Virus record (IMG/VR): IMGVR_UViG_3300029720_000461 | DNA length: 64,000 nucleotides | Origin: a virus | Taxonomy: Duplodnaviria > Heunggongvirae > Uroviricota > Caudoviricetes | Reading direction: 5' to 3' (one strand) | Part shown: in pieces, positions 7,250-48,400 of the stretch | Layout of the letters: each line of letters starts with the position of its first letter | Position numbering within the stretch: position 1 is the first letter of the stretch | Position numbers and translations under genes: made by a program | The notes under the pieces: generated by a model | The model's database searches: none | What the model saw: only the letters and a program-made list of their open reading frames with translations | Told to the model about the DNA's origin: nothing

Positions 7250-7318
7250 ACATCCGTGGTGTAATAGTAACATGACAGTTTCCACTGTAAGCTGAAGGTT
7301 CAAGTCCTTCCGGGTGTG
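7250..7318 (+). tRNA. tRNA-like, probable pseudogene (aberrant anticodon arm)
   Basis: Acceptor acatccg/cgggtgt, D stem gtgt/acat, T arm gaagg-ttcaagt-ccttc; the only good anticodon-arm pairing acagt/actgt leaves a 4-nt loop (ttcc); total 69 nt. Confidence 0.4.
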
Positions 7319-7440
7319 CTTTAAGGATATAACACTTGATATATCTGACAGTACTTAAAGATATTAAAAAGTGTATCGTGAAAGCGAAAGGGAAAATGTG
7401 CAAATAAGACCCTTATACGATTGCAATATATCCTTAATAA

Positions 7441-7511
7441 TCTGACTTAGTTTAATGGCAAAACACTGGCTTTGTAACCCAGTAATGTGAGTTCGATTCT
7501 CTCAGTCAGAA
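7441..7511 (+). tRNA. tRNA-Thr(TGT)
   Basis: Acceptor tctgact/agtcaga; anticodon arm ctggc-tttgtaa-cccag (anticodon TGT); T loop ttcgatt; T stem has one mismatch. Confidence 0.6.
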
Positions 7512-7545
7512 TTATACATATTAAATATTTATAAGGAGCTTTGAT

Positions 7546-7638
7546 ATGCCACCAATTATAGAAAATAAAGACTATGCTGTGATAGGTATAGTTGCAGCAG
7601 TTATTATCAGTATTATTGTTATAATAAAGCTGATTTGA
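7546..7638 (+). CDS. small hydrophobic peptide (30 aa, single TM)
   Basis: MPPIIENKDYAVIGIVAAVIISIIVIIKLI with AAGGAG RBS; below the ORF-track cutoff. Confidence 0.3.
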   Translation: MPPIIENKDYAVIGIVAAVIISIIVIIKLI

Positions 7639-7814
7639 GTAAACTTAAAAAGCATTGTATAGGACATATATTAATGTCTTATATGATGCTTTTTATTATG
7701 CTGTTAAAACACAAATCTTTTTGTTTTAAATTATATAAAAAAGCTTTTTTATATAAATTGTGATTTCTGACATTGATACAATATACAAAAAGATAATTAA
7801 AGGAAGTTAAAAAT

Positions 7815-8225
7815 ATGGAAATAACAATCAGTTGTACTAAGAAGCAGGCATTGCTTATACAGGAAGCAATGGAAGAATATTTTAAAATAAGACTTAACCA
7901 GTTTGACACACTTGCCAATGCACTTGCGTTTGACGGATACGAAAAGTGTGAGCAGGGCTTTGGAAGGCGTGTGGAAGTAAGACAACAGTTAGATAAGGTA
8001 TTTAAGGAAGCCGGAGAACTTCATATGAAAGCAACCGGTGAAGATGCATGTCCTAAAGGCTCTGTAGCTGTGAAATCTGATAACTGCATGGATATGATTA
8101 ATATATATAATGCGTTAAGAATTGCTTTAATTAAAGCTTCTAAGCCTGTAGGAAAGCCGGAAGAAGCTGTAACACTTGAAGACCTTGGCATACCGGTTAT
8201 TTTAGTCAGGAGTGCTGAGTATTGA
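7815..8225 (+). CDS. hypothetical protein
   Basis: 136-aa ORF. Confidence 0.5.
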   Translation: MEITISCTKKQALLIQEAMEEYFKIRLNQFDTLANALAFDGYEKCEQGFGRRVEVRQQLDKVFKEAGELHMKATGEDACPKGSVAVKSDNCMDMINIYNALRIALIKASKPVGKPEEAVTLEDLGIPVILVRSAEY

Positions 8226-8246
8226 GTATCAAGTTAGGAGTTGTTT

Positions 8247-8819
8247 ATGAGCGATATAAATGGTGTAAGTATAAAAAAGCTTACCATAAGCAGGGAAACA
8301 AATGAAGAAAAGAACAAAACTTATTTAACTGTAGCAGCAAGCATATATCTGTCAGGTAAAAAGCTTGGAAACTGGGAATATAAAAGCATATCTACAGGCG
8401 TGGAAAGCAGCAATTTTGATTTCGACTATAAGCTTTTAGAAGAAGCCGCCATGTCACATAAGGTTAAATACAGACCTTTTAAATCGCATGAATTTGAAGA
8501 TTTTGAAGAGAAAGATGTAACGGAGCTTTTAAAACATGTAGCAGACCTTACAATACAGGAAAATAAGTTTAATGAATATATCAAAGCCGGATATAAGGGT
8601 ATGTTAGATTTTACAAATGACAAGTACCATTTTTATGAGCCTTTAATGTATGGAGATGCTAAAGAATTTATGCGGCTTAATCCGGGCAAAGTAGCTCATT
8701 GTAAAAAATATTGTGGAGATAATATGCGTGTAGATACATATACGGATGTAAAACAGTTCAGCCTGCATCTAAAAGAAAAAAGCAGACAGTACAGTTTATT
8801 TGATTATATGATTATTTAA
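8247..8819 (+). CDS. hypothetical protein
   Basis: The listed ORF begins at a TTG; ATG at 8247 (MSDINGV) with AGGAG RBS. Confidence 0.5.
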   Translation: MSDINGVSIKKLTISRETNEEKNKTYLTVAASIYLSGKKLGNWEYKSISTGVESSNFDFDYKLLEEAAMSHKVKYRPFKSHEFEDFEEKDVTELLKHVADLTIQENKFNEYIKAGYKGMLDFTNDKYHFYEPLMYGDAKEFMRLNPGKVAHCKKYCGDNMRVDTYTDVKQFSLHLKEKSRQYSLFDYMII

Positions 8820-8838
8820 AAAAAGGATGTGAAGCAGT

Positions 8839-9159
8839 ATGAGTATATTTAATAAAAAGAAGGATAAAAAAACTGAAACAAATGAACTTGAGAATATACT
8901 TATTGAAATGACTTCACAGCTTAAAAGCTTAAGAGAAGATGTGGGAAAATTACAAAGCTTTGAAAAACGTATAACAGAGCTGGAAGTAAAATATACGGAG
9001 CTTAATCAGGAAATGTTAGACCGGTATGATTCATTAACAGAAAACATTAAAAGAACAGACGGTAGAAGAAGAATACATTCATCAGAACAGGAAAATGACG
9101 GACTGTTTAACAGCTTTGATTATGAGCAGATGAGAGCAAGATTAAGGAATAAGAAATAA
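8839..9159 (+). CDS. hypothetical coiled-coil protein
   Basis: 106-aa ORF, heptad-like charged sequence. Confidence 0.45.
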   Translation: MSIFNKKKDKKTETNELENILIEMTSQLKSLREDVGKLQSFEKRITELEVKYTELNQEMLDRYDSLTENIKRTDGRRRIHSSEQENDGLFNSFDYEQMRARLRNKK

Positions 9160-9190
9160 CATAAAATAATAAATAAATAACATATAAATG

Positions 9191-9219
9191 TTGACATTGA
9201 ACAAAAAGTATGTTATTAT
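9191..9219 (+). promoter_or_regulatory. sigma70-type promoter (TTGACA-17-TATTAT), copy 2, ahead of tRNA island
   Basis: Near-identical to the 6383 element: ttgacattgaacaaa...tattat. Confidence 0.45.
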
Positions 9220-9339
9220 ATAAGAGAAGTAAGAGAGTACATAATTAAAACAATATGGACAAAATGAACCGAAACTCCCTCCACCGGTTCAGCTTCCAAA
9301 TTATTTATGGATAAAGTTAATTGCCAAATTTTATCCATA

Positions 9340-9447
9340 CGGGATAAAACTTAAATTTAATTTTCTTTCAGAAATTAAATCGGTAAGTATAAACACTGGA
9401 CAAATAGTATGCTGTCCTATGTACAGGTTCGATTCCTGATATCCCGT
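9340..9447 (+). other. tRNA-like element of aberrant length
   Basis: Perfect 7-bp acceptor-like pairing cgggata/tatcccg and T arm (a)cagg-ttcgatt-cctg(a), but about 107 nt and no canonical D arm. Confidence 0.2.
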
Positions 9448-9779
9448 TTAGCTGCTTTTGCAGCAAATATTTCTTATTAAGTATTTATAAGATTATTGGA
9501 TATATAAAAAAAGGATATTGGTTGAATATATATTCAGTTGTCTTACTAACCAAATAAAAATCTGGTAAGGCACTCCTTTTTAAGTTTAGCTATAGTAGGT
9601 AAAATTTGATGTAATTCTTATGGCTAGTGTGGTGTGGTTAAAGTACCGTTCGATTCGGTTGTCAAACATCAAGAGTTAAGTTAAACCACATTAATGACTT
9701 AACTGCTATAGCTAAATGTACATTCTGACTTAAGTAATATATCAAGTATATTATTATACTTTTGACCTGCCGCCCATTT

Positions 9780-9852
9780 GGTTCTTTAGCTCAGTTGGTA
9801 GAGCATCCGGCTCATAACCGGAAAGTCTTAGGTTCGAGTCCTAGAAGAACCA
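9780..9852 (+). tRNA. tRNA-Met/fMet/Ile2 (CAT)
   Basis: Acceptor ggttctt/aagaacc; D arm tagctcagttggtagagca; anticodon arm tccgg-ctcataa-ccgga; T arm ttagg-ttcgagt-cctag. Confidence 0.8.
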
Positions 9853-10010
9853 CTGCTATATAGCTTTGGCACGAATAAGTTATATGGCACTGTTGTTTGA
9901 CTTTTTTTGTCATGTTTGAAATACAGATATTAGAAAGAACATTTTGCTGGGTGTATCTGTATTATTCTACTAGCAAATGAAAGTGTTCGGTAGAATCTTC
10001 TTTCTTTTAT

Positions 10011-10084
10011 TGGAATGTGGTCTAATTTGGTAAGGCGCTTGATTTGGGTTCAAGAAATTGTCGGTTCAAATCTGGTCATTCCAA
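10011..10084 (+). tRNA. tRNA-Pro(TGG)
   Basis: Acceptor tggaatg/cattcca (perfect); anticodon arm cttga-tttgggt-tcaag; T stem relies on G-U pairs. Confidence 0.65.
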
Positions 10085-10185
10085 CTAAAGCTTGTCACTT
10101 ATTAAATGCAAATAATACCTTTAAAAGGGAGAATAAAACTATGAGTGATGGATATGGATTGCTATTTTAATTAAGGAGACATGTT

Positions 10186-10518
10186 ATGCAAAAATTATCA
10201 AGAAATTTAGAGCAATTAAAAAATTCAGTAAATAGTTCTAAAAACCGAAATATACGATTTGTTAATGTTAAAGCTGTTAGGCAGTGTAAATATTGTGGAA
10301 GTATAATTGGTGTAGGTGATACTTGTCTTACTGTAAATAAGAAGAAAGAAGGCAGAAGATGGGTTTGTTTATCTTGTGCAAATGCTATTTTAGGATATAA
10401 GGAAACTAAAGTACAAATGAACTGTGTTCCATTTGGAGATGAAGGTGCTTACATGGCTTTATGTGATTTTGCAGCCGAGCAAGAAGCAGAATTATATGAC
10501 AGAGGTATTTTGTATTGA
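10186..10518 (+). CDS. hypothetical zinc-ribbon protein
   Basis: CKYCGS...CLSC Cys pairs; 110 aa. Confidence 0.5.
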   Translation: MQKLSRNLEQLKNSVNSSKNRNIRFVNVKAVRQCKYCGSIIGVGDTCLTVNKKKEGRRWVCLSCANAILGYKETKVQMNCVPFGDEGAYMALCDFAAEQEAELYDRGILY

Positions 10519-10523
10519 AGATT

Positions 10524-10621
10524 TGGTTAGATGACATTAGACCAGCACCAGAAGATTATGTGCAGTGTAAATATCTTCTTTGTTAATCTGTGTGTTGTGG
10601 GTTCGAGTCCCACTTAGCCAG
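10524..10621 (+). other. tRNA-like element / tRNA 3'-end fragment (possible att core or pseudogene)
   Basis: T arm gtggg-ttcgagt-cccac followed by ttagcca, which pairs with tggttag 90 nt upstream; no canonical D or anticodon arm. Confidence 0.2.
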
Positions 10622-10698
10622 CTTGTTGTTCTTTTTAAGAATGATATTATTCATTATCGTATCAGTAATGAGCGTAGTAAAAATAACAAGAAGGAGTA

Positions 10699-11001
10699 AT
10701 GATTATGAGTAATTGTGGTCTTGTTGTAAATAAAAACGATATTAACACATACTTTCAAAGTTTTATTAAACCTAGAATTTTTGACGCTGAATGGCATATA
10801 AGCTTAGCGTCAGATTTTCTTAATATAATTGATAAAGATGAATTTAAGTTAGATGATTTATGTAATCCTAAATACATAAAAGATGTTCTTAATGATAATA
10901 AAGATAATGAATACACTAAAGCTGTCCTCTATAGAAAAAATCCTGAAATGTATATATCGGGAATATTTAGATTGTATGATTTATACTTAAAGAGCAAATA
11001 A
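10699..11001 (+). CDS. hypothetical protein (paralog of 12829..13131)
   Basis: Shared motif D..FHI.LA..FL..ID.DE ... PE.YIS..F with the 12829 ORF. Confidence 0.5.
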   Translation: MIMSNCGLVVNKNDINTYFQSFIKPRIFDAEWHISLASDFLNIIDKDEFKLDDLCNPKYIKDVLNDNKDNEYTKAVLYRKNPEMYISGIFRLYDLYLKSK

Positions 11002-11092
11002 TCAAGGATGACGGTTACGGATTAGTATTTTAATAATAAAGGAGAGTGGTTTGTATGTTTAGTGATTTTAGAAATTCAATAGGAGTATAAAA

Positions 11093-11165
11093 GGATTGTA
11101 AGCTAACTCGGTAGAAGCGTCTGTCTGAAGAACAGAAGGAATTGGTTCGACACCAATACAATCCA
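11093..11165 (+). tRNA. tRNA-Phe(GAA)
   Basis: Acceptor ggattgt/acaatcc; anticodon arm tctgt-ctgaaga-acaga; T arm attgg-ttcgaca-ccaat; overlaps and invalidates the minus ORF 11030..11224. Confidence 0.8.
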
Positions 11166-11284
11166 TTAGCACTGCTGAAGTGGTTGTAAATGTAATTGTC
11201 TGAGTTCTTTACAATCAGGTGCAAAACAAAATCAGATATATCAGACTATTTCTTCAGCAATATATATCTGATTATATTAAATAA

Positions 11285-11813
11285 TGCGGGATAGAGCAGT
11301 TGGAAGCTCGCAAATGTATTATTTAAGTAAAGGAGAGGTATGTTTCATGGATTCTCCAAAAAATATGGGAAACAAAGCAGAGATAGTTGTTATATCAGAA
11401 TTTATTAAAAATGATATACCTGTTTCAATTCCTTTTGGACAAAATGAACCATATGATTTAGTAATTGATACAAAATATGGATTTAAGTCTGTTCAAGTAA
11501 AACATGGAACTTATAGAAATGGTTGCGTTGTTGTAGATATAAGACATCGAATAGGATATTCTAAAATAGAATATAGTACATATGATGGCAAAGCTGATTA
11601 TATCGCAATATGGTGCGAAGAATTAAATACTTGCTATTTATTAGATATTAAAGAATGTAATGGAAAAACCAATCTTAGATTAAGAATTGATAATCCTAAA
11701 AATAATTCTTGCATTTCAACTATAGTTTGGGCTAAAGATTATGAATTTTCTAATAAAGTTCTTTTACTAAAATAATACATTTGAGGTCACAGGTTCAAGT
11801 CCTGTTCCCGCTA
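11285..11813 (+). tRNA. interrupted tRNA gene (5' half 11285-11315, 3' half 11779-11813) split in the anticodon loop by a 463-bp ORF-bearing insertion
   Basis: 5' half has canonical geometry: acceptor tgcggga, U8A9, D arm gagc-agttggaa-gctc, G26, anticodon-stem strand caaat. 3' half: atttg, variable aggtc, T arm acagg-ttcaagt-cctgt, acceptor tcccgct. The two anticodon-stem strands extend into a perfect 12-bp helix caaatgtattat/ataatacatttg. Confidence 0.5.
11347..11775 (+). CDS. PD-(D/E)XK-like nuclease (Hjc/endonuclease-like) encoded inside the tRNA insertion
   Basis: Motifs EPYDLVID ... KSVQVKHG (PD...(D/E)XK spacing); AGGAGAGG RBS 8 nt upstream; fills almost the whole insertion. Confidence 0.45.
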   Translation: MDSPKNMGNKAEIVVISEFIKNDIPVSIPFGQNEPYDLVIDTKYGFKSVQVKHGTYRNGCVVVDIRHRIGYSKIEYSTYDGKADYIAIWCEELNTCYLLDIKECNGKTNLRLRIDNPKNNSCISTIVWAKDYEFSNKVLLLK

Positions 11814-11859
11814 CTGGTTGTTCCCCGACAGCCTATTTAGATTAAATATAAACACTCGT

Positions 11860-11933
11860 TCTGATTTAGTTTAATGGTAAAACACCTGTAGTCAAATACG
11901 GGAGATTAAGGGTTCGATTCCTTTAAGTCAGAA
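11860..11933 (+). tRNA. tRNA (paralog of tRNA-Thr at 7441) with 8-nt anticodon loop; identity uncertain
   Basis: Acceptor tctgatt/agtcaga and D arm near-identical to 7441; the best anticodon arm cctgt-agtcaaat-acggg has an 8-nt loop; one extra nt between T stem and acceptor. Confidence 0.4.
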
Positions 11934-11939
11934 TCGGTG

Positions 11940-12830
11940 ATGTCGGTATTATTATTGAGAAGTTGCTTGCAATAGTCAGTAATAGTATTGGATAAGCCGT
12001 AATAAAAAAATAACAGATACCCTAGTGAAGAAGGGCTGTCACCCTGCTAGGACATTCTTAGAGTAGTCTGTATTAAGAAGGATACCTTTTAATATAGGAT
12101 TTAAGTGACATTATAATTGATAAGTCCACTACTTATTAAGAAGATGGAGCTTGAAGGTTACGGAAAGTACCAATAGTTAGGAATGGTGTATCTATACAGT
12201 TTAATATAATGCCGCAACAGTGTGGGGAGAGCAATAGACGCTTGAGAAGAGAAGAACCTTAAGTCTTAGTCTTGTGGTGGGATTGAGCAGCTTAAGGAAT
12301 ACCAAACAATCTCCTTCGCTATGATGTTGTAGAAATACAACTATAACACACAGCAGCGGACAAGTAGCCCATAGGCGTGAAATGAGAAATTGGATGAATT
12401 AAACCAATATAAAATTCTGAATGATGGGTGAAAGTTGCAGGTAGAAAATCCTGTCATAGCATTGGGGAGAAATCCTGTGGTAAGAAGTTTAGAGGTCGCT
12501 CCTTTAAGCTCAGACTTATCATCTATGTAGCATAATAATAGCGGACTGTATAGGATAAGGCGAAAGCCTATCTGTTTTTATAATATTAGTCCTTTTGATT
12601 TAGGTTCTAGTTCCGTAAGGAGTATGGGTTCGACTCCCATAGAGGGCATTCACCTTAGCTCAATTACAATAAGTCTTAATAAGTAGCTATGATGACGATT
12701 ATACTGAAAATTTAGAATAGTTGTATACCTTTTGGGTGATTGACTATAGCGGTATCCATTTGTAGAGCAACCCCTTGTTGCGGGGTAGTATTCGGTAGAA
12801 GTCCGAGGGTGATTTATAAGGAGAAAATAT
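11940..12830 (+). ncRNA. candidate large structured non-coding RNA (GC-enriched, ORF-free block beside tRNAs)
   Basis: About 890 nt with no ORF of 60 aa or more on the gene strand, visibly higher GC than flanks, many GNRA-like and paired segments, a tRNA-like T arm plus acceptor-like 3' end (atggg-ttcgact-cccat agagggc) at 12615-12647. Confidence 0.25.
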
Positions 12831-13131
12831 GAAACTAACAAAGAAACAAATAATTGAATATATGAATAAATATATTCGAGGGTATTTATATGATGCTGAT
12901 TTTCACATATGTTTAGCAACAGAGTTTTTGAAATTGATTGACTGTGATGAAGTTGATATTGTTGAATATCAGAATATACCGTTAATTTTGCAGGTTATAT
13001 CTGAGCATAGTGAGACAGAAACCGCAAAATCTATTCTATGTCGCAAAACGCCTGAGTTGTATATTTCAGCATTGTTTGCAACATTAGAAAGACGTATCAA
13101 TGAGTATATTAATATGACGAAAACAGTATGA
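12829..13131 (+). CDS. hypothetical protein (paralog of 10699..11001)
   Basis: AAGGAGAA RBS; shared motifs with the 10699 ORF. Confidence 0.5.
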   Translation: MKLTKKQIIEYMNKYIRGYLYDADFHICLATEFLKLIDCDEVDIVEYQNIPLILQVISEHSETETAKSILCRKTPELYISALFATLERRINEYINMTKTV

Positions 13132-13178
13132 GTAAATCCTATAAAAACCCGGATATACATTAGAATTAAGTATTATTT

Positions 13179-13251
13179 GTGTCACTAGCTCAGTTGGTAG
13201 AGCATACGACTTTTAATCGTAGGGTCACGGGTTCAAATCCCGTGTGACACA
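13179..13251 (+). tRNA. tRNA-Lys(TTT)
   Basis: Acceptor gtgtcac/gtgacac; D arm gctcagttggtagagc; anticodon arm tacga-cttttaa-tcgta; T arm acggg-ttcaaat-cccgt. Confidence 0.8.
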
Positions 13252-16825: not shown

Positions 16826-18712
16826 ATGGATAAACAAAAATTTACTTATAAAGTATATGATGCTAAAACAAGAAGCTTCATATATGAAGAGGATTTCACA
16901 AGTGATAATCCTTTTAAAGATATAGCAGAACGGATGAGTAAAGAAGACATATCACATGGGAGTCTTTATATCGTGGCAGAAAATGAAAACGGACAGGAAG
17001 CTGCATATACGATTGTAAAGAAAAGTGGTACAAAATTCGTTAAGTATGAACATTGTGATTTTCCTTTATCATATATAGATTTTGATATTGAGCCAAGATA
17101 TCTTACATGTATTGATGAAGTGTATAACCACTATAAGTATTATGAGATAACCTTTGATAAGGATAATTTAAGGACAAATGTAAGATATGGACGTATAGGT
17201 GCTGATAAGAATGATACATTTGGTGAGCGTGAATATGATTATCCTTTATCTATGTACTGGGTTAAATATTATGAGAAATTGTCAAAAGGCTATGAAGATA
17301 AAAGTGAACTTAAGGATTTTGATAACAGGCAGAAAAAAGGAACTGAATATGAACCTGTTAAGGATAAATACTCAAAATCACTTATTGAGTTCCTTATAAG
17401 AAAGCAGAAAGACTATGTTGAAAGTAATTATTCAACCGGTGCAGCATTTTCAATGGAAGCTGTAAAAAAATCTGAAAAGATACTGGAAGAGTTAAAGGCA
17501 TATGCTGATTCATCATTTTCAAATAAACAGTTTAAAATAAGAGAACTCTTTAAGGAGCTTGTAACAATATTGCCAAGAAGAATTGCAGATGTATCAAACT
17601 ATCTTAATTATATAACAGGTTTAAGTTCTGAAGCTTTAATGGAACATATTGAACAGGAAGAAGACCTGCTTAATAACTTTAAGGACTTATATGTTAAAAA
17701 AGAAAATGAAGCTGAAGAGAAAGCTGATAATAAAGACATACTTGAAGCTAATAATTTAACAGCCACATGTACGGATTATAAAGACATACATATGATAGAA
17801 GATAAGCTTGATAAAGATATGGCGGCAATGAAGACAGTATTAGCTGTTAAAAATAAATATACTAATGACCGTTACATAGCATGTAAAAAAGAAAAAGGCA
17901 TTGAGAACAGGGGATGTCATTTATTATGGCACGGAAGCCGTACAGAAAACTGGTGGAGTATATTTAAGAATGGTTTAACACTTAATAATAACGCAATAGT
18001 AACAGGAAAGATGTTCGGACAGGGATTATACTTTGCTCCTAAAGCTGAAAAGAGTATGAATTATACATCAAGTTTAGGAAGCTATTGGACAGGCGGTAAT
18101 GATAAAACTGGCTTTATGGCGTTATATGCAGTTGCTATGGGTAAACCTTATGAAATTGACCATGCACTTAGTTCATATTTTACTGAAAAGGATTTAAAGC
18201 ATGGCTGTCATTCAGTATGGGGAAAAGCAGGAAGACATTTAAGAAATGATGAATGCATTATTTATGATGAAAGACAGTGTGACATTAAGTTTTTGCTTGA
18301 GGTTGACAGGGAAAGAGAAAAGTATCTTACACCTGAATTTATAAAAGCTGCAAGGAATATAAAACTCAATCAGTTAAAAGCAGATAAAAACGGATTAAGA
18401 GCTTATATGAGCTTAAGAACTCCTGACAGTACTTTTAGCAGACTGAATATGGATAAAAATAATAAAGTCGAATTTATTTATACTTATGATAACACACTTA
18501 CAATCAAGACATATGATAAGGAACTTAAATCAAGTGAAAAGGAACTTAAATTTAATTCATATCAGACTGATTATCTTAAAATGATGTTTAAAGAAAATTT
18601 CACTTCTAATGACAGGGAATTTGATATGTTACTTGAAGAAAAACAGAAGGAAGTACAAAAGCCAAAGACTAAAGTAAAAAAGAAAGAAATTGAAATGTCT
18701 CTGCTTGCATAA
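16826..18712 (+). CDS. WGR-like + PARP-catalytic-domain ADP-ribosyltransferase
   Basis: N-terminal YYEITFDKDNL...VRYGRIGAD (WGR-like); catalytic H-Y-E signature: LLWHGSRTENWWSIFKNGL, GQGLYFAPKAEKSMNYTS, NDECIIYDERQCDIKFLLEV (cf. PARP1 HGS / GIYFA / NEYIVYD). Confidence 0.75.
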   Translation: MDKQKFTYKVYDAKTRSFIYEEDFTSDNPFKDIAERMSKEDISHGSLYIVAENENGQEAAYTIVKKSGTKFVKYEHCDFPLSYIDFDIEPRYLTCIDEVYNHYKYYEITFDKDNLRTNVRYGRIGADKNDTFGEREYDYPLSMYWVKYYEKLSKGYEDKSELKDFDNRQKKGTEYEPVKDKYSKSLIEFLIRKQKDYVESNYSTGAAFSMEAVKKSEKILEELKAYADSSFSNKQFKIRELFKELVTILPRRIADVSNYLNYITGLSSEALMEHIEQEEDLLNNFKDLYVKKENEAEEKADNKDILEANNLTATCTDYKDIHMIEDKLDKDMAAMKTVLAVKNKYTNDRYIACKKEKGIENRGCHLLWHGSRTENWWSIFKNGLTLNNNAIVTGKMFGQGLYFAPKAEKSMNYTSSLGSYWTGGNDKTGFMALYAVAMGKPYEIDHALSSYFTEKDLKHGCHSVWGKAGRHLRNDECIIYDERQCDIKFLLEVDREREKYLTPEFIKAARNIKLNQLKADKNGLRAYMSLRTPDSTFSRLNMDKNNKVEFIYTYDNTLTIKTYDKELKSSEKELKFNSYQTDYLKMMFKENFTSNDREFDMLLEEKQKEVQKPKTKVKKKEIEMSLLA

Positions 18713-18735
18713 AAACATCTTTGCACGGCTTACTA

Positions 18736-18868
18736 ATGTCTTATTACATAAGCCATATCTTATTACATAAGCCATGTAAGACGTTGGTAAAGCTGTGCCA
18801 GTTTTGCTTATTAGAGTAATGCATACTTCGTAGACATTACTCTAATAAGCAAAACTTAGAATCACTAT
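18736..18868 (+). repeat. intergenic repeat block: 18-nt tandem direct repeat x2 and 16-bp inverted repeat around tacttcgtag motif
   Basis: tcttattacataagccat x2; gcttattagagtaatg / cattactctaataagc flanking catacttcgtagaca. Confidence 0.6.
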
Positions 18869-18955
18869 GATAATAAAATTGTTTTTTAAAAAGTAATGAG
18901 TTTATTTTTAATTCAATTCAAAAAATATTAACTATATCATAAAAAGGAGAAAGAT

Positions 18956-23833: not shown

Positions 23834-24361
23834 ATGGAAGATAATAAATTTACTGAACAACTATCAGGGCATGATACAACAATAACTGAAGATAAAATGG
23901 CACATTGTAAAGCTGTGGCAGAGCATATGAAGAAGGTTGCCAAGATACAGGGGAAAGATGACCTGACGGCTGATATATATTATGTAGTGGGGCTGCTGCA
24001 TGATATTGGATATCTAAGAGGCAGAAAAGAGCATGAAATAAATGGTGCGGTTATTTTAAAAGCAATGGGAATGAAAGATGAGTATGCACAGGCAATACTT
24101 AATCATGGAACTAATCCATATACTTTAAAGACAAATGAACAGACTGACATATTAATAGCATTGCAGGATGCTGATATGAGTGTAGATAAGTACGGTAGGG
24201 ATGCAGGCTTTAAGAAACGTCTTGAGGATATTAAATTAAGATACGGTGCTGATAGTGAAGCTTATGATACCGCCACCAAAACAGTTCAGTTCCTTAAAGA
24301 AAAATATAATGATGAACAGTCAAAGTCTATGAAAAGATATAGTAATTATGAAAGAATATAA
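23834..24361 (+). CDS. HD-domain phosphohydrolase
   Basis: H...HD motif: HCKAVAEHM ... GLLHDIGY ... NHG; ends YSNYERI. Confidence 0.6.
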   Translation: MEDNKFTEQLSGHDTTITEDKMAHCKAVAEHMKKVAKIQGKDDLTADIYYVVGLLHDIGYLRGRKEHEINGAVILKAMGMKDEYAQAILNHGTNPYTLKTNEQTDILIALQDADMSVDKYGRDAGFKKRLEDIKLRYGADSEAYDTATKTVQFLKEKYNDEQSKSMKRYSNYERI

Positions 24362-24491
24362 TTTTTAAGTGGTGTGATTAATTTCATGCCACTTTTTTAC
24401 TTTACAAATACAATAAAAAAGCTTTATTACAATATTTCCTGATTTTATACCTGTTAAAATTACATTATCAAGCAAATAAGGAGTCCTGATT

Positions 24492-24722
24492 ATGAGAAAT
24501 AATGTAATTGAAATATGGCAGCCAAAATATATGACAGATACATGTTTAATAGCAGCATATAAGGTTAAGGAAGATAATATCATTAAATTTACAAAGGCAA
24601 AGCATTTGGAAGGTATGAAATTTAAAATAAGCGGTAATGATATCCGAAGCTGTGAAATTGTTTCCAATGGTAAGATTGACTGCTATAACGTACCTATGAG
24701 TATGTTGAAGAGAGTGGATTAA
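24492..24722 (+). CDS. hypothetical small protein
   Basis: 76-aa ORF with AAGGAG RBS. Confidence 0.4.
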   Translation: MRNNVIEIWQPKYMTDTCLIAAYKVKEDNIIKFTKAKHLEGMKFKISGNDIRSCEIVSNGKIDCYNVPMSMLKRVD

Positions 24723-25525
24723 TGAGATGCGGAGTATGTGGCACAGTTATACCTTTTACTGATATCCTGTGCCTTAAATTTGGAAAAGTAAAAGACGGGT
24801 GCATCTGCAAATACTGTAAAGAAAAAACAGTAAAGATAATTCCCTTTAATACTTTAAGTTTATATGATGTCAAGCAGCTTATTATTTATAATTTAAGCCT
24901 TAATGAAGAACTAAGCAGAAAACCTTTTAATGCCACATCAGAACTTGGCATGTTAAAACTGGATGAGATTAACAGATATTTAAAAGTGGTTGAAAGCAGA
25001 CATAAAGAAATGGCTGTAAGAATGAAAGATATTACTGATTTAGCACTTGATTTATCAAAGCCAGTGATAAAAGGAAGAAATATATCAGGTGACATAATAT
25101 TTTCAATGAGGCTTAATAATGGTTTAAATATCACTAAAAGGATTAAAACAGGTGTAAGAATAGATTACAGTATCATAGGCAATAAAATCCAATATAATGA
25201 GCCGGGTGAACTTATAGTTATGAAATGTCTTATAAGTCAGGTTTATGAAAATATGTCATCAGAACTAAAGAAAAATATATATGAATATAATGCTTGTAAA
25301 GATATTGAAAATGATTCATTCACCACACAAGGCAGTATAGAACGGATAAAAGCATTAAGCCTTTTTGGACTGGATGATAAATATACCGGTGATGAACTTA
25401 AAAGCAGATACAGATTACTTATGAAAATGTTTCATCCGGACAGTCAGACAATTAATAACAGTATATTAACAGATTATACAGAAAGGATAAATGCAGCTTA
25501 TGAACTGCTGAAAAACAATTTATGA
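24722..25525 (+). CDS. zinc-ribbon + C-terminal J-domain (DnaJ-like) protein
   Basis: CGVCGT...CICKYCKEK; C-terminal LKSRYRLLMKMFHPD (J-domain HPD motif). Confidence 0.55.
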   Translation: MRCGVCGTVIPFTDILCLKFGKVKDGCICKYCKEKTVKIIPFNTLSLYDVKQLIIYNLSLNEELSRKPFNATSELGMLKLDEINRYLKVVESRHKEMAVRMKDITDLALDLSKPVIKGRNISGDIIFSMRLNNGLNITKRIKTGVRIDYSIIGNKIQYNEPGELIVMKCLISQVYENMSSELKKNIYEYNACKDIENDSFTTQGSIERIKALSLFGLDDKYTGDELKSRYRLLMKMFHPDSQTINNSILTDYTERINAAYELLKNNL

Positions 25526-25699
25526 AAAAATATATAACAGGTCTTATTTTAAATATCCTATTAATACTTTTTCCTATAGGTTTATTAACTGCCGGTGTAA
25601 TGACAGGGCAGAATATATTTTATAAATTAGGGATTGTTTCATGCGTGATAGCTTTTATGTTAATGAAACAAATTTATAAAATTGCAAACACACACTCGT

Positions 25700-27140
25700 G
25701 ATTTTAGCCATGACTAAGTGAGCATTTACAAAAAATCAGAATATGCTGAAATATGTATTTAGTGATAAATACATAAAATAAATATGTTTTATTGAATCTC
25801 GATTACATCTTCTATTTTACATTTAAGTTTACAGATGTTTTCAATAGTTTCAAGTGAAATTATTATATTTAAGAAGGAAATGATATTATGGCAGAAAAGG
25901 CTTATAAATATAGAATATATCCAAATAAAAATCAGAAAGAACTTATTGCTAAAACATTTGGATGTTGCAGATTTGTGTATAACTATTATCTTGATAAACG
26001 AATAGAAATGTATGAGAATGATAAGACCACATTTACATATTACATGTGTTCCAAAGATTTGACACAATTGAAGAAAGAATATGAATGGCTTAAAGAACCA
26101 GATAAAGATTCTTTACAAAAGTGTTTAAAAGATTTAGATATGGCATATCAGAAATTTTTTAAGGAACATACTGGTTATCCGAAATTTAAGTCAAAAAAGA
26201 ATAGGTATCAGTCTTATAGAACAAGTTACACAAAAACAACTGCTGGCGGGAATATAATGTTTTTAAATAAACATATAAAACTTCCAAAGTTAGGATTAGT
26301 TAAAATAAGAGATAAACAAGTTCCACAAGGAAGAATATTAAATGCCACAATATCACAAGAACCAAATGGACACTACTACTGTTCTCTATGTTGTACAGAT
26401 GTAGAATTTAAACAGTTGCCAAAAACCAATCAGAATATTGGAATAGATTTAGGGCTAGTGAATTTTGCAATATTATCTGATGGAAAAACAATTGATAACC
26501 TTCATTTTTTTGAAAAATCAGAAAAGAAACTTGCTAAATTACAACGTGAATTATCAAGAAAAGCAATTGGTAGTAATCGTTGGAATAAGGTGAGAATCAA
26601 GGTTGCAAATTTACAGAAACATATTTCTAATCAAAGAAATGATTTCTTACAGAAACTCACAACAGAAATTATAAGAATGTATGATGTAATTGCTATTGAA
26701 GATTTAGATATCAAATCTATGAAAGAAACAGATTCTATCATTCGCAATAAACGAATTGGAGATGTATCTTGGTCTGAATTTCGTAGAATGTTAGAATATA
26801 AGTCTCAATGGTATGGAAAGAAATTATCTGTAATAGACAGATATTATCCTTCTTCACAAATTTGTCATTGTTGTGGTTATAAAGATGGTAGAAAATCAGA
26901 AGATATTCGGTCTTGGGCTTGTCCTAAATGTAATTCAAAATTAGATAGAGACATTAATGCTGCTATAAATATTTTGAATGAAGGATTAAGAGTTATAAAT
27001 GTTTAAATAGTATATAAGAACCGTAGGAACTACGGGGATAGCTCGGTGATACTTAACTCAATAGAGTTATTGACCGAGAATCATGTGACTTTAATCATGT
27101 GAGGTTCAAAAGCATACATTAAATTATGCTGAAGAAAAAA
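25700..27140 (+). mobile_element. IS200/IS605-family element carrying solo tnpB (no tnpA); boundaries approximate
   Basis: tnpB with hairpin-rich flanks; no Y1 transposase ORF adjacent. Confidence 0.4.
25888..27006 (+). CDS. tnpB: TnpB (IS200/IS605-family OrfB, RuvC-like RNA-guided nuclease)
   Basis: OrfB N-terminus YKYRIYPNKNQ; RuvC-I GIDLGL; C-terminal zinc finger CHCCGY...CPKCNSKLDRDINAAINI. Confidence 0.85.
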   Translation: MAEKAYKYRIYPNKNQKELIAKTFGCCRFVYNYYLDKRIEMYENDKTTFTYYMCSKDLTQLKKEYEWLKEPDKDSLQKCLKDLDMAYQKFFKEHTGYPKFKSKKNRYQSYRTSYTKTTAGGNIMFLNKHIKLPKLGLVKIRDKQVPQGRILNATISQEPNGHYYCSLCCTDVEFKQLPKTNQNIGIDLGLVNFAILSDGKTIDNLHFFEKSEKKLAKLQRELSRKAIGSNRWNKVRIKVANLQKHISNQRNDFLQKLTTEIIRMYDVIAIEDLDIKSMKETDSIIRNKRIGDVSWSEFRRMLEYKSQWYGKKLSVIDRYYPSSQICHCCGYKDGRKSEDIRSWACPKCNSKLDRDINAAINILNEGLRVINV

Positions 27141-27149
27141 TATCAGAAG

Positions 27150-27420
27150 AAGATAAGTTTAAACTGCTTGGCATTGACATAAATGTCTCTATTTCATAGA
27201 GCCATGACAGTTTATTTTATGATACTAATATCTTTGTTAAAACAAAGCTATCCAAGTTTGCCTTATGATACTAACATTTCTACTTCGTAGAACTGTACAA
27301 GTTCATTTTATGATATTTGCCTTTGGCAAATCTAATAAAGTGAACTTAAAAATTCGGTAAATCTAATAAAACAAACTTCGCATCCTAATAAAATAAACTT
27401 AAAACCACTATAACTATAGA
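27150..27420 (+). repeat. hairpin and direct-repeat cluster 3' of tnpB (omega-RNA/right-end region, iteron-like repeats)
   Basis: ttttatgatactaa x3; short 5-6-bp-stem/3-nt-loop hairpins (ctctat-ttc-atagag, tctac-ttc-gtaga, ttgcc-ttt-ggcaa); direct repeats ctaataaaRNRAACTT x3. Confidence 0.5.
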
Positions 27421-27497
27421 ATCGTTTCTAAAAGGGTAAAAATTACATTTTATTTAATTTTAAAAAATTATAAAAATAAAAAGGAGAAAAAAGAGAT

Positions 27498-27749
27498 ATG
27501 AGAATTGCAAAGAGAGATGGAATTTCATTAGAAGAAATAAATAATATGTTTAAGTATGGTCAGGAAGTCAAGACAATAAGAGCAGATGTGACTTATAAAG
27601 GTATTATAAAGGAGATTTATCCGCATGTGCTTGTATGTGAATGTACAGTTGTTAATTCAGATATTGATGAAGTCAGAATTGGACTTAAACGTACATTAAC
27701 AATAAATAAAATAAGCTTTATCGGTGAAAAAGCAAATTCATATATTTAA
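27498..27749 (+). CDS. hypothetical protein
   Basis: 83-aa ORF with AAGGAGAAAAAAG RBS. Confidence 0.45.
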   Translation: MRIAKRDGISLEEINNMFKYGQEVKTIRADVTYKGIIKEIYPHVLVCECTVVNSDIDEVRIGLKRTLTINKISFIGEKANSYI

Positions 27750-45425: not shown

Positions 45426-48400
45426 ATGAAATTAAAGAGAACTTTTAAGACACTGTTAATGATAATCGCAACAGTAATGAGTGTTGTATCAGGCATACTT
45501 ATTGATTCAGGAACACTTGCATATGCAGCCACGACTTATACCTTAACGCTTAACTGGGATGATGGTGTTGAATGGGTTGCTACTGATAAAGATGGTATTT
45601 ACAGGTGGGAAAAAGGCGGTTCAAAGACATTTCAGGCAGGTTCTAAGGCTTATACTTATGTCAAGCTTAAAAATGGTGCAACAGTCAAATCATTCTTTTC
45701 AAGGCAGGAAAATAAAGACTGGACTGATTATACATATACGTCAGGAAGCATATGCTATGATACATGGACAATGTACAATAACAGAAACGTGGACATATAT
45801 ACATCTGTATCATCTTCAGCAGATGTGTCTTATGACTGGGATAACCTCGTAACAAGCTCAAAACATTATCATTCAAGCAATGGAAATGAAGCATCTTGGA
45901 GTAATTTAAGGGATGACCTTGGAAGGTCTCCTGCACCGATTTATTCAATTTACTATAAGCTACAGGAAAATAGGTACAGGGAAACCTGCTATGGAGATAA
46001 TCAGGAAGATAAAGACTTCGGCGGTTATGAAATAATGTTAAGGACAGAAGACAGCCATAACAGTTATTGGTATGGACAGTCCTCATATGCAAATGGAGAT
46101 AGATTTGACGACTGGTACAGGGATGAATTTGAAGGAATAAAGCTTTCAAATCTTGCAATTGTACCTGTCCAGATAAAGGGAGATAAGTTTTTACAGATTA
46201 ACATAAGCGTTAAGAACACCAATTCATATGCAAAAGAAATATCACTGGCAACATGCAGTGATATACAGGTTGCAGATGATGATAATGCAGCTACATTCTT
46301 TAATGGTAACGGCTTTACAATGACAAACATGTACTGCGAAACATCAGACAATTATCATGGTGGCACAATTCCTGCGGCAACACTTAATGTATATGCGAAG
46401 GATGTACCGGGATATGTAACTGATGCGGATGCAGTATATATAGGACATTTTGTATACAGAAAAGAGCATGTATGGTTAAACAATGTACTTGGTGATAAGG
46501 CAACGAATTATAACAAGTATAAGCATGGCGGAACATCAGGAGAAGGTGAATTGGATTCAGGTTTTTCAATTGCATGGAAGAACAGAACAATTGCAGCAGG
46601 TCAGACACAGACTTACAGCTACATCATAGGCATAGGAAAGTACAATTCAGATAATAAGATAACATTTAATGCAAATGGTGGAGAATTAAAGACTCCGGGA
46701 ACAAGCATCAATAACCCAAGCGGAAATTACAGTAATAAAGTTACGGTAACATATGGTACAGATACATATTCATCAATGAGTAATGATATACCAGAAAGAG
46801 CAGGTTATACATTTGACGGATGGTGGACAACACCTAATGACAGCAATGCAAGCGTAATGGTATATGATGCATCAGGAAAATGTAATAATGACTGTAATTA
46901 TTGGAAAAATAATCAGTGGCAGGGAACTAATGATTTAACCGTATATGCACACTGGAAAGCAAACACATATACAGTACGTCTTAACACAGGCGATATCCCG
47001 TCATCAGAATTGACAAAACTGACAGAAACAGCATCAACTGAAGGATGGACATGGAATGAGAACGGCAGATATTTTTCAAAGGCATTTGTACAGAATGAAA
47101 ATAATTACCTTCCGGGAGTAAATAAGTTCTTCAGTGCTAATAATTATGAATCAGTAGGCAGTAAAGTAACAGACAAGTATTTTGTACAGGATAAGACAAA
47201 GAATCCTACCAAGGTATTGTATAACTGGTGGACATCAGCATCAGGTGGTACTGATATAGGCAGGGGAAAAAAGATTTATAACAACTTGTATGAGATATCA
47301 AAGGACAACAGTGGAATTGTTAATCTTTATCCGCACTGGATGGGATATACAACAGTGTTTAATTACACAGACAATGCCCCTGCTAATACAGCCGGTCTAA
47401 CGGTAACAATCAACAACAGCATTAATGATGGCATGGATAACTGTCTGTATCAGGTATATGGAAGCTGTTTCTTTTATAAGGGAACAGACGGCGAGTATCA
47501 CGATTATGAAGGTACAAATCCTGACTTAAAGGTAACAGCAAGTATTCCAGACAGTAACGGATATAAATACATCTTTAATGGCTGGCATCATAAAAACTGG
47601 AATTACCTTACAGATGGATTAGGAAAGCTTACATATAAGAATAATTATAATATCGGACAGGGTAAAACTTCATACAGTTTATCACCACATTTTTCAAGAG
47701 TAGGAATTAATTATAACGTAAGACTTAACGCAAATGTACCTGATACAGAAAGTACATTACAGGTACTACATCAGAATGGAATATCATCATACATTTACAA
47801 CAGCACTAGCAGATACTTTTCAAGAGAACTTACATATGATGATTCGCAGGATATGTTATCACCTGACGTATATTCACTTAAGGGATATCATTTGGTAAGC
47901 AGAAGTAACTGGTATACGGAAAAAACAGGTGGTAATACAGTATTAGCACCATGCAATAATACGGAAGCAGAATATCCGGACTGGGCTGAAAACAACTGGA
48001 ATCTTACAACTGAAGATGGAGCAACAGTAGACCTGTATGCAAGATGGCAGGCAAATAATTATAAGATAGCATACAACTTAGATGGTGGTACATATGGTAC
48101 ATCACATCCGACAAGTGCAGACTATGATACAATGGTAACAATAGATAACCCGTCAAAGGCAGGTTATACATTTACAGGATGGACAATTACAGGGTATGAC
48201 AGTACTGCTTCAGGACACAATGCATCTGCATGGACAGAAGAGACTGGTACATCTTATAAGAATTTAACTGCAACAGACGGAGCAACAGTTACATTTACTG
48301 CTACATGGAAAAAGGAAGCTCCTAAGACAGCTAATTTACAGACAACAGGTGATGTGGGAATAAAAGCAACATCACATTCTGATAAGACTGTTGTAAATAT

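Follow-up and report, generated by a model that had tools for sequence, protein, structure and literature searches.

Organization of the tnpB locus

The window studied here is the whole 64,000-nucleotide stretch of the viral record IMGVR_UViG_3300029720_000461 (Caudoviricetes), and our subject is a tnpB gene at positions 25888–27006 together with the insertion sequence to which it very probably belongs. The open reading frame matches the Pfam families HTH_OrfB_IS605, OrfB_IS605, and Cas12f1-like_TNB, all three above cut-off, and contains a GIDLGL motif and an intact C4 zinc finger (CHCC…CPKC), which bears out what an earlier reading of the letters without database searches (the sequence-only reading) had reported. 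Its product aligns over residues 3–367 with the solved ISDra2 TnpB (8EXA/8H1J; E = 8e-87), and the RuvC triad D187/E271/D355 aligns to the catalytic D191/E278/D361 of that protein. At the DNA level, matches of ∼70% identity are found to tnpB of Clostridioides difficile and of a Clostridioides plasmid. Judged from these features, tnpB is a real gene that is apparently intact. The features of the element and of the host gene that it interrupts are the following.

25522–25677, + strand: 5′ stub of an ATPase gene (codons 1–52, of which the final two are altered) with the N-terminal membrane segment; ends in TTTAT at 25673–25677
25678–27109, + strand: whole insertion sequence as delimited here, 1432 nucleotides, assigned to the IS200/IS605 family, without TnpA; ends from ∼60 relatives and from filled versus empty alleles
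25678–25734, + strand: left end with a subterminal hairpin at ∼25694–25713 (CTCGTGAT-TTTA-GCCATGAC; alignments and direct reading)
25735–25766, + strand: 5′ stub of a group I intron, ∼30 nucleotides left, catalytic core deleted (alignment to locus L003)
25789–25860, − strand: relic of a Cro/C1-type helix-turn-helix (HTH) gene, last 23 codons (ISLETIENICKLKCKIEDVIEIQ) and stop codon (translation)
25888–27006, + strand: tnpB, 372 amino acids; RuvC triad D187/E271/D355, zinc finger C326/C329/C345/C348; Pfam and ISDra2 TnpB matches
27012–27109, + strand: omega-RNA scaffold and right end, minimum extent, terminal motif GAGGTTCAA (covariation, covariance model)
27110–27125, + strand: guide portion of the omega-RNA, AAGCATACATTAAATT, the first 16 nucleotides of the right flank and the target after TTGAT in the intact ATPase gene
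27110–27195, + strand: final 28 codons (KHTLNYAEEKISEEDKFKLLGIDINVSIS) and stop codon of the ATPase gene, its 3′ stub (alignment to element-free alleles)

Ends, copies, and lineage of the element

We fetched 67 loci encoding relatives, of which ∼60 related copies were used to define the ends, together with 12 element-free loci of the same replicon (fetched loci carry L numbers). Similarity of these copies to the window spans from just upstream of tnpB to 27108/27109 and then ends abruptly. The terminal motif of the relatives is GAGGTTCA(A/G), and the copy in the window stops at 27109, ending in GAGGTTCAA; the right end of L086, which reads GGTTCAG followed by AAGCATAC, fixes the exact junction. 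Beyond the right end, 51 loci fall into more than 25 unrelated flank groups, and therefore the family is, or was recently, mobile. The sequence-only reading had allowed that other copies might be missing and had proposed to align them if present; with more than 50 further loci in more than 25 different flanks, the first possibility does not apply and the ends could be aligned as proposed. In most loci, TTGAT precedes the conserved left end (ATTGCRAACRCACACTCGTGACTTTAGTCATGAGTAAGTGAGC); a few have TTTAT or TTAAT there. In the window, the left end begins at 25678, directly after TTTAT (25673–25677), and its hairpin departs from the family consensus CTCGTGAC-TTTA-GTCATGAG by three substitutions, with two or three pairs lost. 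The hairpin of the right end is intact and covarying. The window holds a single copy: neither a pattern search nor a covariance model with filters off finds a second right end or omega-RNA in it.

The absence of a TnpA partner, also claimed from the letters, holds. With IS608 and IS200 TnpA queries, tblastn gives no TnpA at E ≤ 1 in the 64 kb, and 20 loci of the replicon are likewise without a match, although these queries detect TnpA in L059 and L066, beside distant relatives of the element. The element is therefore non-autonomous. Such a state is not unusual, as tnpB genes mostly occur without tnpA and the solo state is the commonest (PMC10055086).

TTGAT is given as the transposon-adjacent motif (TAM) of the CdiIStrons in bioRxiv 10.1101/2023.11.20.567912. 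For group A IStrons, PMC4227781 lists TTGAT, ATTAT, or TTTAT as target sites, TCAG as the 3′ terminus, and homology to ISDra2. The TTGAT/TTTAT target and the TCAG terminus of the window element agree with both. The element further resembles the group A IStrons of C. difficile (CdISt1/CdiIStron) in its TnpB lineage (∼70% DNA identity), in a homologous left end, and in the target pentanucleotide TTGAT/TTTAT and a TCAG/TCAA 3′ terminus. With ISDra2 (IS200/IS605) it shares full-length TnpB homology (E = 8e-87), the TTGAT TAM, an omega-RNA from the 3′ end of the element, and a guide from the flank; in contrast to ISDra2, it has no TnpA in cis, its left end is decayed, and its omega-RNA sequence is family-specific. 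We put the probability at about 85% that positions 25678–27109 form a single, non-autonomous insertion sequence of the IS200/IS605 family, from the lineage of ISDra2 and the group A IStrons. Its nuclease, RNA, TAM, and layout are all within what is known.

The omega-RNA and its guide

The 98 nucleotides at 27012–27109 form four helices: stem-loop 1 (SL1; 27021–27035), an outer and an inner SL2 (27042–27079, with the inner stem at 27054–27070), and SL3 (27082–27101), which is the right-end hairpin. For 33 sequences, RNAalifold predicts 24 pairs, and compensatory changes on both sides are seen in 13 of these; the paired fraction of the cells is 97.8%. Of 500 shuffles, not one attains the observed value for even a single one of five measures, and sliding of the pair partners, as a control, lowers pairing to 28–49%. 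A covariance model made from this region scores 119 bits at its own site, and no other site of the window exceeds 13.7 bits. The sequence-only reading had pointed to short hairpins with 3-nucleotide loops in the 3′ flank, and these are indeed found at 27022, 27188, 27279, and 27317; only the first of them, SL1 (ccgtag-gaa-ctacgg), belongs to the element. Likewise, a right end and an omega-RNA are present 3′ of the gene as supposed, but they are limited to 27007–27109, where homology stops, and do not extend through the proposed 27007–27420. In Rfam, positions 27015–27103 give a weak match to Ref70 (Enterococcus sRNA 70; 30.6 bits, with the gathering score at 115), and no signal besides this sub-threshold one was found. 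It may be that the “small RNA” Ref70 is in turn the omega-RNA of some related element.

We assign the 16 nucleotides at 27110–27125 as the guide because the empty alleles described below carry the TAM and then AAGCATACATTAAATT, the 16-nucleotide right flank of the element; the length of 16 is the one that we take from ISDra2 and presume to apply here. Neither AAGCATACATTAAATT nor TTGAT followed by it occurs elsewhere in the window, so that the search for matching targets with a TAM that the sequence-only reading had suggested finds none in the window.

Interruption and partial loss of an ATPase gene

The 12 element-free loci were found via the exact 83-amino acid protein encoded downstream and via its 90% and 78% relatives. 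All 12 possess, after a DnaJ-domain gene, an intact 370/371-amino acid AAA+ ATPase gene (Pfam AAA and AAA_lid_6). The window aligns to this intact gene up to 25670 and again from 27110 on; 24000–25670 corresponds to L079 310–1980 (98%). Between these blocks, the element takes the place of L079 1988–2854, that is, 867 nucleotides or 289 codons, in-frame. The called 59-amino acid open reading frame at 25522–25701 is the 5′ stub continued by 8 codons into the transposon, and the stop codon of the ATPase gene sits in the hairpin CTCTATttcATAGAG (27187–27201; ctctat-ttc-atagag).

At the right junction, the empty allele reads GGCAATTGAT followed directly by AAGCATACATTAAATT in L082 and L084 and continues with AAACATAC in 10 loci. 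TTGAT is intact in 12/12 empty alleles, and a perfect match to the guide is present in two (L082 and L084); the other 10, including L094, have A for G at guide position 3 (AAACATAC). At the left junction, the pentanucleotide in the TAM position is TTTAT, in ungapped register with an in-frame TTGAT of the same gene (L079 1983–1987). The insertion in the window is a TAM-to-TAM, in-frame deletion of the host gene. That both junctions lie at TAM positions argues for an element-mediated rather than a random deletion, and the loss of 867 nucleotides would most likely have come about by recombination between two copies or by another element-mediated (for example, transposase-mediated) adjacent deletion.

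Decay from an IStron

Relatives of the element occur in three layouts, namely left end–tnpB–right end, left end–intron–tnpB–right end, and left end–intron–antisense HTH gene–tnpB–right end. In L003, the intron lies at 2185–2511 and scores 65.4 bits as Intron_gpI in Rfam (gathering score 50); the introns of relatives are missed at the Rfam gathering threshold and were recovered with permissive filters only. Intron_gpI has no match at E ≤ 1 in window positions 25500–27600. The window aligns to L003 in two blocks (25668–25766 with 2116–2216, and, at 88%, 25768–25864 with 2631–2732), and hence lacks the intron core (414 nucleotides) as well as 238 nucleotides that comprise the first two-thirds of the HTH gene and the region upstream of it. 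Because only stubs of the intron and of the HTH gene are kept, the window copy is a decayed derivative of group A (CdISt1-type) IStrons. It is no longer an IStron, as it fails the intron test: with the intron core absent and 867 nucleotides of the gene gone, no splicing at the left- and right-end boundaries can restore the host reading frame. Without an intron the insertion cannot splice out, which fits the loss of the host gene.

The complete antisense HTH gene encodes 64 amino acids in L003 (2653–2847, − strand; Pfam HTH_26, 61.7 bits), where it stands between the intron and tnpB, and it is also present in L002, L008, L009, L022, and L049. By analogy it may be a transposon-encoded regulator comparable with Arc, the repressor of IS605 elements (bioRxiv 10.64898/2026.09.24.754181).

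Whereas the close relatives (77–88% DNA identity) share with group A IStrons a group I intron between left end and tnpB, the copy in the window, with its intron core gone, is unable to splice, and its host gene is destroyed, not preserved. Some of its relatives differ from group A IStrons also by the antisense Cro/C1 HTH gene, of which a term search of the two IStron papers gave no mention. Tourasse et al. (PMC4227781) noted that degenerate IStrons always keep the part needed for splicing and that it is the insertion-sequence part which decays; the decay of the window copy follows the opposite pattern. With solo-tnpB (IS1341-type) elements, it shares the layout left end–tnpB–right end without tnpA, which is seen exactly in the relatives L001, L004, L007, L015, and L026. 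The window copy differs in having arrived there by deletions from the intron- and HTH-bearing form, whose stubs are still visible.

Filled and empty alleles in the population

Across 12 filled loci, the element shows 7 variable sites in 1439 nucleotides (4.9 per kb), and the 3 kb to its left show 128 (41.7 per kb), arranged in strain-specific blocks. The 63 nucleotides directly left of the element (25608–25670) contain 10 substitutions that are common to all filled alleles, two of them non-synonymous; no empty allele has any of them, the outgroup-like L094 included. In this region, strains otherwise differ by 1–2%. The pattern fits a filled allele that arose once, recently, in a relative diverged to some extent, and that later spread into other backgrounds or recombined with them. 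TnpB-stimulated homing and ordinary recombination in the flanks are equally compatible with it.

In the mechanism that we propose, TnpB would form a complex with an omega-RNA from the last ∼100 nucleotides of the element, whose guide would be read from the adjoining host DNA at 27110–27125. This complex would recognize and cut TTGAT followed by AAGCATACATTAAATT, i.e. the uninterrupted ATPase gene of element-free copies of the replicon. A cell with both alleles might then repair the cut from the element-bearing copy, which would amount to transposon retention or homing. This retention or homing logic, which the element would share with ISDra2, is that of Meers et al. (PMC10055086).

Host origin of the 3′ flank

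L079 and L087, which lack the element, have positions 27110–27423 at 99% identity. Because this flank is present in alleles that were never filled, its TTATGATA repeats, its three iteron-like repeats, and its 15-mer are host intergenic DNA. The features of the flank and of the related sites elsewhere in the window are the following.

27186–27400, unstranded: palindrome array in host intergenic DNA, in which small hairpins (four, at 27187, 27232, 27279, and 27316) are interleaved with three nested inverted repeats
27401–27497, + strand: leader/promoter region of the 83-amino acid gene (27498–27749); with the last palindrome arm, it corresponds to the ∼45-nucleotide repeat that flanks an optional 209-amino acid cassette
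764–809, unstranded: hairpin of 46 nucleotides whose 3′ arm holds the inverted 15-mer (790–804); relation to the other two sites uncertain
18800–18856, unstranded: member of the host palindrome family, AGTTTTGCTTAT…ATAAGCAAAACT, perfect 22-bp arms, apex cATACTTCGTAGAc holding the 11-mer; downstream of the PARP gene

The three nested inverted repeats of the array are AGTTTATTTTAT (27209–27220 with 27388–27399; 12/12 pairs), AAGTTTGCCTTAT (27254–27266 with 27366–27378; 11/13), and AAGTTCATTTTATGATATTTGCC (27299–27321 with 27325–27347; 20/23), and the small hairpins have stems of 5–7 bp and loops of 2–4 nucleotides. Exactly this nesting is obtained by folding as RNA (z = −5.5) and as DNA (z = −5.9). 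The iteron-like repeat of the sequence-only reading, CTAATAAARNRAACTT, does occur three times (27332, 27363, and 27385), the window has no further copy, and 0/100 shuffles reach three; the copies are the three 3′ arms of the nested repeats. The 5′ arms include the TTATGATA repeats, and the 15-mer makes up the third of the small hairpins, which is paralogous to the hairpin at the ATPase stop codon (repeat D1; 70% over 50 nucleotides, spacing 91). The motif TTTTATGATACTAA occurs in the flank once exactly and once with 2 mismatches. Window-wide, 6 copies with at most 2 mismatches against 4.3 expected are what chance gives; the local repetition around it is real as a 46/91-nucleotide direct repeat.

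The array is also present in the element-free loci L079, L087, and L093 and is absent from L068, L078, L082, L084, and L086. Its units vary: L090 has a simple palindrome in place of two nested ones in the window, L080 and L091 have another apex, and the window and L079 have one nested unit more. Next to the array lie the gene for the 83-amino acid protein, which has no assigned function, and a gene for an EAL protein. A 209-amino acid gene, which carries its own family palindrome at its end, is present or absent between two ∼45-nucleotide direct repeats, with the crossover in AAACTTAAAA. This optional gene has no Pfam match (L069 11537–12253, L079 3169–3885) and is located between the equivalents of window positions 27423 and 27383; many strains possess it, the window does not, and the single ∼45-nucleotide repeat copy in the window is a chimera of the two that flank the gene. 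Tentatively, we take the array for gene-end hairpins (terminator or insulator) joined to the next promoter/leader in a recombination-prone region. The nested palindrome modules might also represent a new kind of small, self-inserting hairpin unit.

Dispersed copies of the palindrome

The 15-mer TCTACTTCGTAGAAC is exact at 27279–27293 (+) and at 790–804 (−). The second of these is the inverted copy near position 800 of the sequence-only reading, although at this site it forms no self-contained 5-3-5 hairpin and is part of the 3′ arm of a longer one; lying in the arm of a different hairpin, it may be a coincidence. Exact repeats of at least 15 nucleotides number 79 in the window, the shared 15/16-mer among them, and a first-order Markov model predicts ∼24. 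The near-copy inside an inverted repeat after the PARP gene was correctly recognized: the 11-mer TACTTCGTAGA is exact at 18824–18834, within the palindrome 18800–18856. Among over-represented 11-mers, TACTTCGTAGA (3 copies) ranks 7th, and 3/20 random sequences are as extreme, which makes its excess suggestive but not significant.

The palindrome family has the consensus AGTTY-N3-TTAT … ATAA-N3-RAACT. The arms at 18800–18856 and their downstream leader are paralogous to the region upstream of an 85-amino acid gene in L094. As this site belongs to the same family, the link drawn earlier between 27281 and 18826 reflects a real paralogy of host intergenic modules. A third member at 638–761 was dropped; the arm motif is present there, and the predicted fold pairs the arm elsewhere. 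Directly before 18800–18856 lies a long hairpin (18723–18797) with the tandem 19-nucleotide repeat TCTTATTACATAAGCCAT at 18739 and 18758, and this region, too, is strain-variable (overlapping alignment blocks 18853–18876).

The copies of the 15-mer had been proposed as TnpB guide targets or as miniature relics of the insertion sequence. As targets they lack a TAM and any similarity to the guide. As relics of the element or its omega-RNA they also fail, since the pattern and unfiltered covariance-model searches find one copy only. With the guide, TAM plus guide, right end, and omega-RNA nowhere else in the window, the palindromes are neither targets nor miniature relics. The further idea, named in the sequence-only reading as one that would refute it, that they are a common host repetitive extragenic palindrome (REP) unrelated to TnpB is correct in that they form a small host repeat family unrelated to TnpB, but two sites in 64 kb do not make a REP family.

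Alternative interpretations

Several points weigh against the interpretation as an insertion sequence that persists through its RNA-guided nuclease in a host region of gene-end hairpins. That the TnpB nuclease is apparently active is a prediction from its conserved residues only. The 5′ end of the omega-RNA probably lies inside the 3′ end of tnpB, so that the limits given for the scaffold are a minimum. The mismatch at guide position 3 in 10/12 empty alleles probably weakens cleavage. TnpA-dependent mobility of the window copy is doubtful because the left TAM reads TTTAT and pairs of the left hairpin are lost. A scan of JGI metagenomes gave 0 matches for an intermediate with TTGAT#4 joined to the left end and an intact upstream gene, and 0 for one with the right end beside the TTGAT#1 flank (right end joined to TTTTTATTAGC); as neither deletion intermediate was found, the element-mediated deletion is a step that we infer. 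Confidence in the gene-end function of the array is low because U-tracts are lacking and the G-U wobble pairs show no consistent strand-specific pattern.

With respect to the maintenance of the element, two stronger readings deserve consideration. The filled allele could act as a naturally occurring RNA-guided gene drive for a deletion: TnpB would cut the intact allele of co-resident replicon variants at TTGAT followed by AAGCATACATTAAATT, and repair would install the element together with the 867-nucleotide in-frame deletion. The near-invariant element in mosaic flanks, the 63-nucleotide tract, and the coexistence of matching and seed-mismatched empty alleles would be possible traces of conversion by such a drive in diverged backgrounds of the replicon; we nevertheless consider this drive unlikely. 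TnpB and its omega-RNA could, on the other hand, be domesticated, i.e. immobile and kept by the replicon for a host-level role such as the exclusion or conversion of intact-ATPase variants or RNA-guided regulation. In favor of this, tnpB, omega-RNA, and the catalytic triad are intact in an element whose left end and left TAM have decayed and which lacks the intron, the HTH gene, and TnpA; the identical protein occurs in 246 metagenome contig blocks, always at the same site. The near-invariance within mosaic flanks would fit domestication as well, and the tract of 10 mostly synonymous, filled-specific substitutions looks like an imported conversion tract. The low diversity, however, follows equally from a recent single insertion without homologous partners inside the element, and the near-absence of variation leaves no measurable sign of selection. 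Moreover, the guide merely equals the flank, as in any IS605 element, and the majority empty allele is seed-mismatched, a state that is ancestral as it is shared by L094. Domestication therefore appears quite improbable to us.

The hairpins and repeats downstream of 27109 have been read in two further ways. The sequence-only reading assigned the whole flank up to 27420 to the transposon as right end, long omega-RNA, and possibly a replication or partition site, with the palindromes as TnpB targets or miniature relics. Its hairpins and repeats are real and locally over-represented, and the 11-mer TACTTCGTAGA is present three times; the homology of ∼60 copies nevertheless ends at 27109, alleles without the element have 27110–27423 at 99% identity, the guide differs, and the window has no other TAM plus guide, right end, or omega-RNA. 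An iteron origin or partition site is likewise not supported, since the supposed iterons are 3′ arms of inverted repeats, the GC skew is monotonic with a cumulative curve that does not turn, and no rep or par gene is seen beside the array. We regard this assignment of the flank as extremely improbable. The array and its paralogue at 18800–18856 could instead be functional DNA sites, either for cassette recombination, as Frpo-like single-strand promoters in the leading region of a conjugative element, or as small, mobile REP-like units that insert into one another's loops. The presence or absence of the 209-amino acid gene between its ∼45-nucleotide repeats with a crossover in AAACTTAAAA, the exchange of entire palindrome units at the apex between strains (L090, L080/L091, window, and L079), the DNA fold (z = −5.9), and the location of all genes on one strand together with conjugation-type genes (T2SSE/F and DUF932, with TraX in overlapping loci) would be in line with such sites. 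Homologous recombination at short repeats, however, suffices for the cassette polymorphism, and no recombinase is adjacent. Integron attC sites have the layout RYYYAAC…GTTRRRY, and the arms here read GTT…AAC on both strands, the reverse of that layout. The flank resembles REPs, bacterial interspersed mosaic elements (BIMEs), and Frpo in its nested or clustered, imperfect intergenic palindromes, in strain variability, and in strongly negative folding energy. REP/BIME sequences, in contrast, number hundreds per genome, and the two family sites in 64 kb, with none elsewhere in the fetched loci and 0 matches of the palindrome unit in viral contigs, are far too few; no homologue of TnpA or of a REP-associated tyrosine transposase (RAYT) was found. 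Frpo carries promoter hexamers inside its stem (PMC11541004), and no −35/−10 pair lies within the stems of the array; the best pair, TAAACT-17-TAGAAT (27385–27422, direct reading), has its −10 outside the hairpin, and neither an oriT nor a relaxase was located. A consensus scan for sigma-70 promoters, considered with terminators as the explanation of the repeats, gave no excess of promoter-like sites. A role as functional DNA sites is thus improbable, and we retain the low-confidence interpretation as gene-end hairpins.

The replicon and other features of the window

The window has ∼30% G+C and essentially all of its genes on the + strand, and its GC skew is steadily positive over the whole length. 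It encodes seven tRNAs, a ROOL RNA, a RecD-like helicase, T2SSE/T2SSF-type proteins, a PIF1 helicase, a DUF932 protein, a PARP/WGR protein, and a 2613-amino acid repeat protein. The ROOL RNA (11997–12589; 331 bits) lies inside the cluster of seven tRNA genes (7250–13251). The 628-amino acid protein with WGR and PARP catalytic domains (16826–18712) is unusual cargo for an element of this sort, and so is the 2613-amino acid protein with Listeria-Bacteroides repeats (45426–53267). Conjugation-type genes are present in the window (T2SSE/F and DUF932) and in the overlapping fetched loci (TraX).

Searches of the window against deposited phage and plasmid collections gave no match. The same DNA is present in human-gut metagenome contigs of 0.26–1.6 Mb, and L070 is 100% identical over 21 kb. 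The replicon is common in such metagenomes, with ∼1,500 contig blocks for the 83-amino acid protein and contigs of up to 0.7–1.6 Mb (L087 and L091). Given its occurrence in metagenome contigs and the lack of phage or plasmid matches, we call the replicon uncultivated; a chromosome, a megaplasmid, and an integrated element are all possible. Anti-phage defense annotation of the neighboring genes gave nothing but weak generic AAA or HD matches, and the DnaJ-domain neighbor has no relatives in viral contigs.

Outside the element, positions 692–2456 comprise ∼1.8 kb without a convincing open reading frame. The fold of positions 560–945 is far more stable than that of shuffles (z = −6.1) and contains several long hairpins as well as a long-range pairing of 822–837 with 913–930; Rfam gave no family at E ≤ 0.1 for this region, which may be a candidate for an undescribed structured RNA near the ROOL/tRNA region. 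A 22-mer, AAAAAGCTTTATTACAATATTT, or an overlapping version of it occurs three times in intergenic DNA (24416, 34737, and 54866, the last on the − strand), and motifs related to it, AAAAAGCTTTTTTATA, are found at 2381 and 7735. These repeats may be a replicon-specific promoter or terminator motif.

Implications

For the annotation of tnpB loci, the element teaches that the omega-RNA ends ∼100 nucleotides after the stop codon and that hairpins farther downstream are not the element's. Within its family, it represents an IStron lineage that has lost the intron and kept the nuclease and guide RNA, the reverse of published IStron decay and alongside the loss of a host gene. As filled alleles and empty alleles with TAM and perfect target coexist in one uncultivated human-gut replicon, the locus offers a natural test case for the homing and retention model of TnpB.

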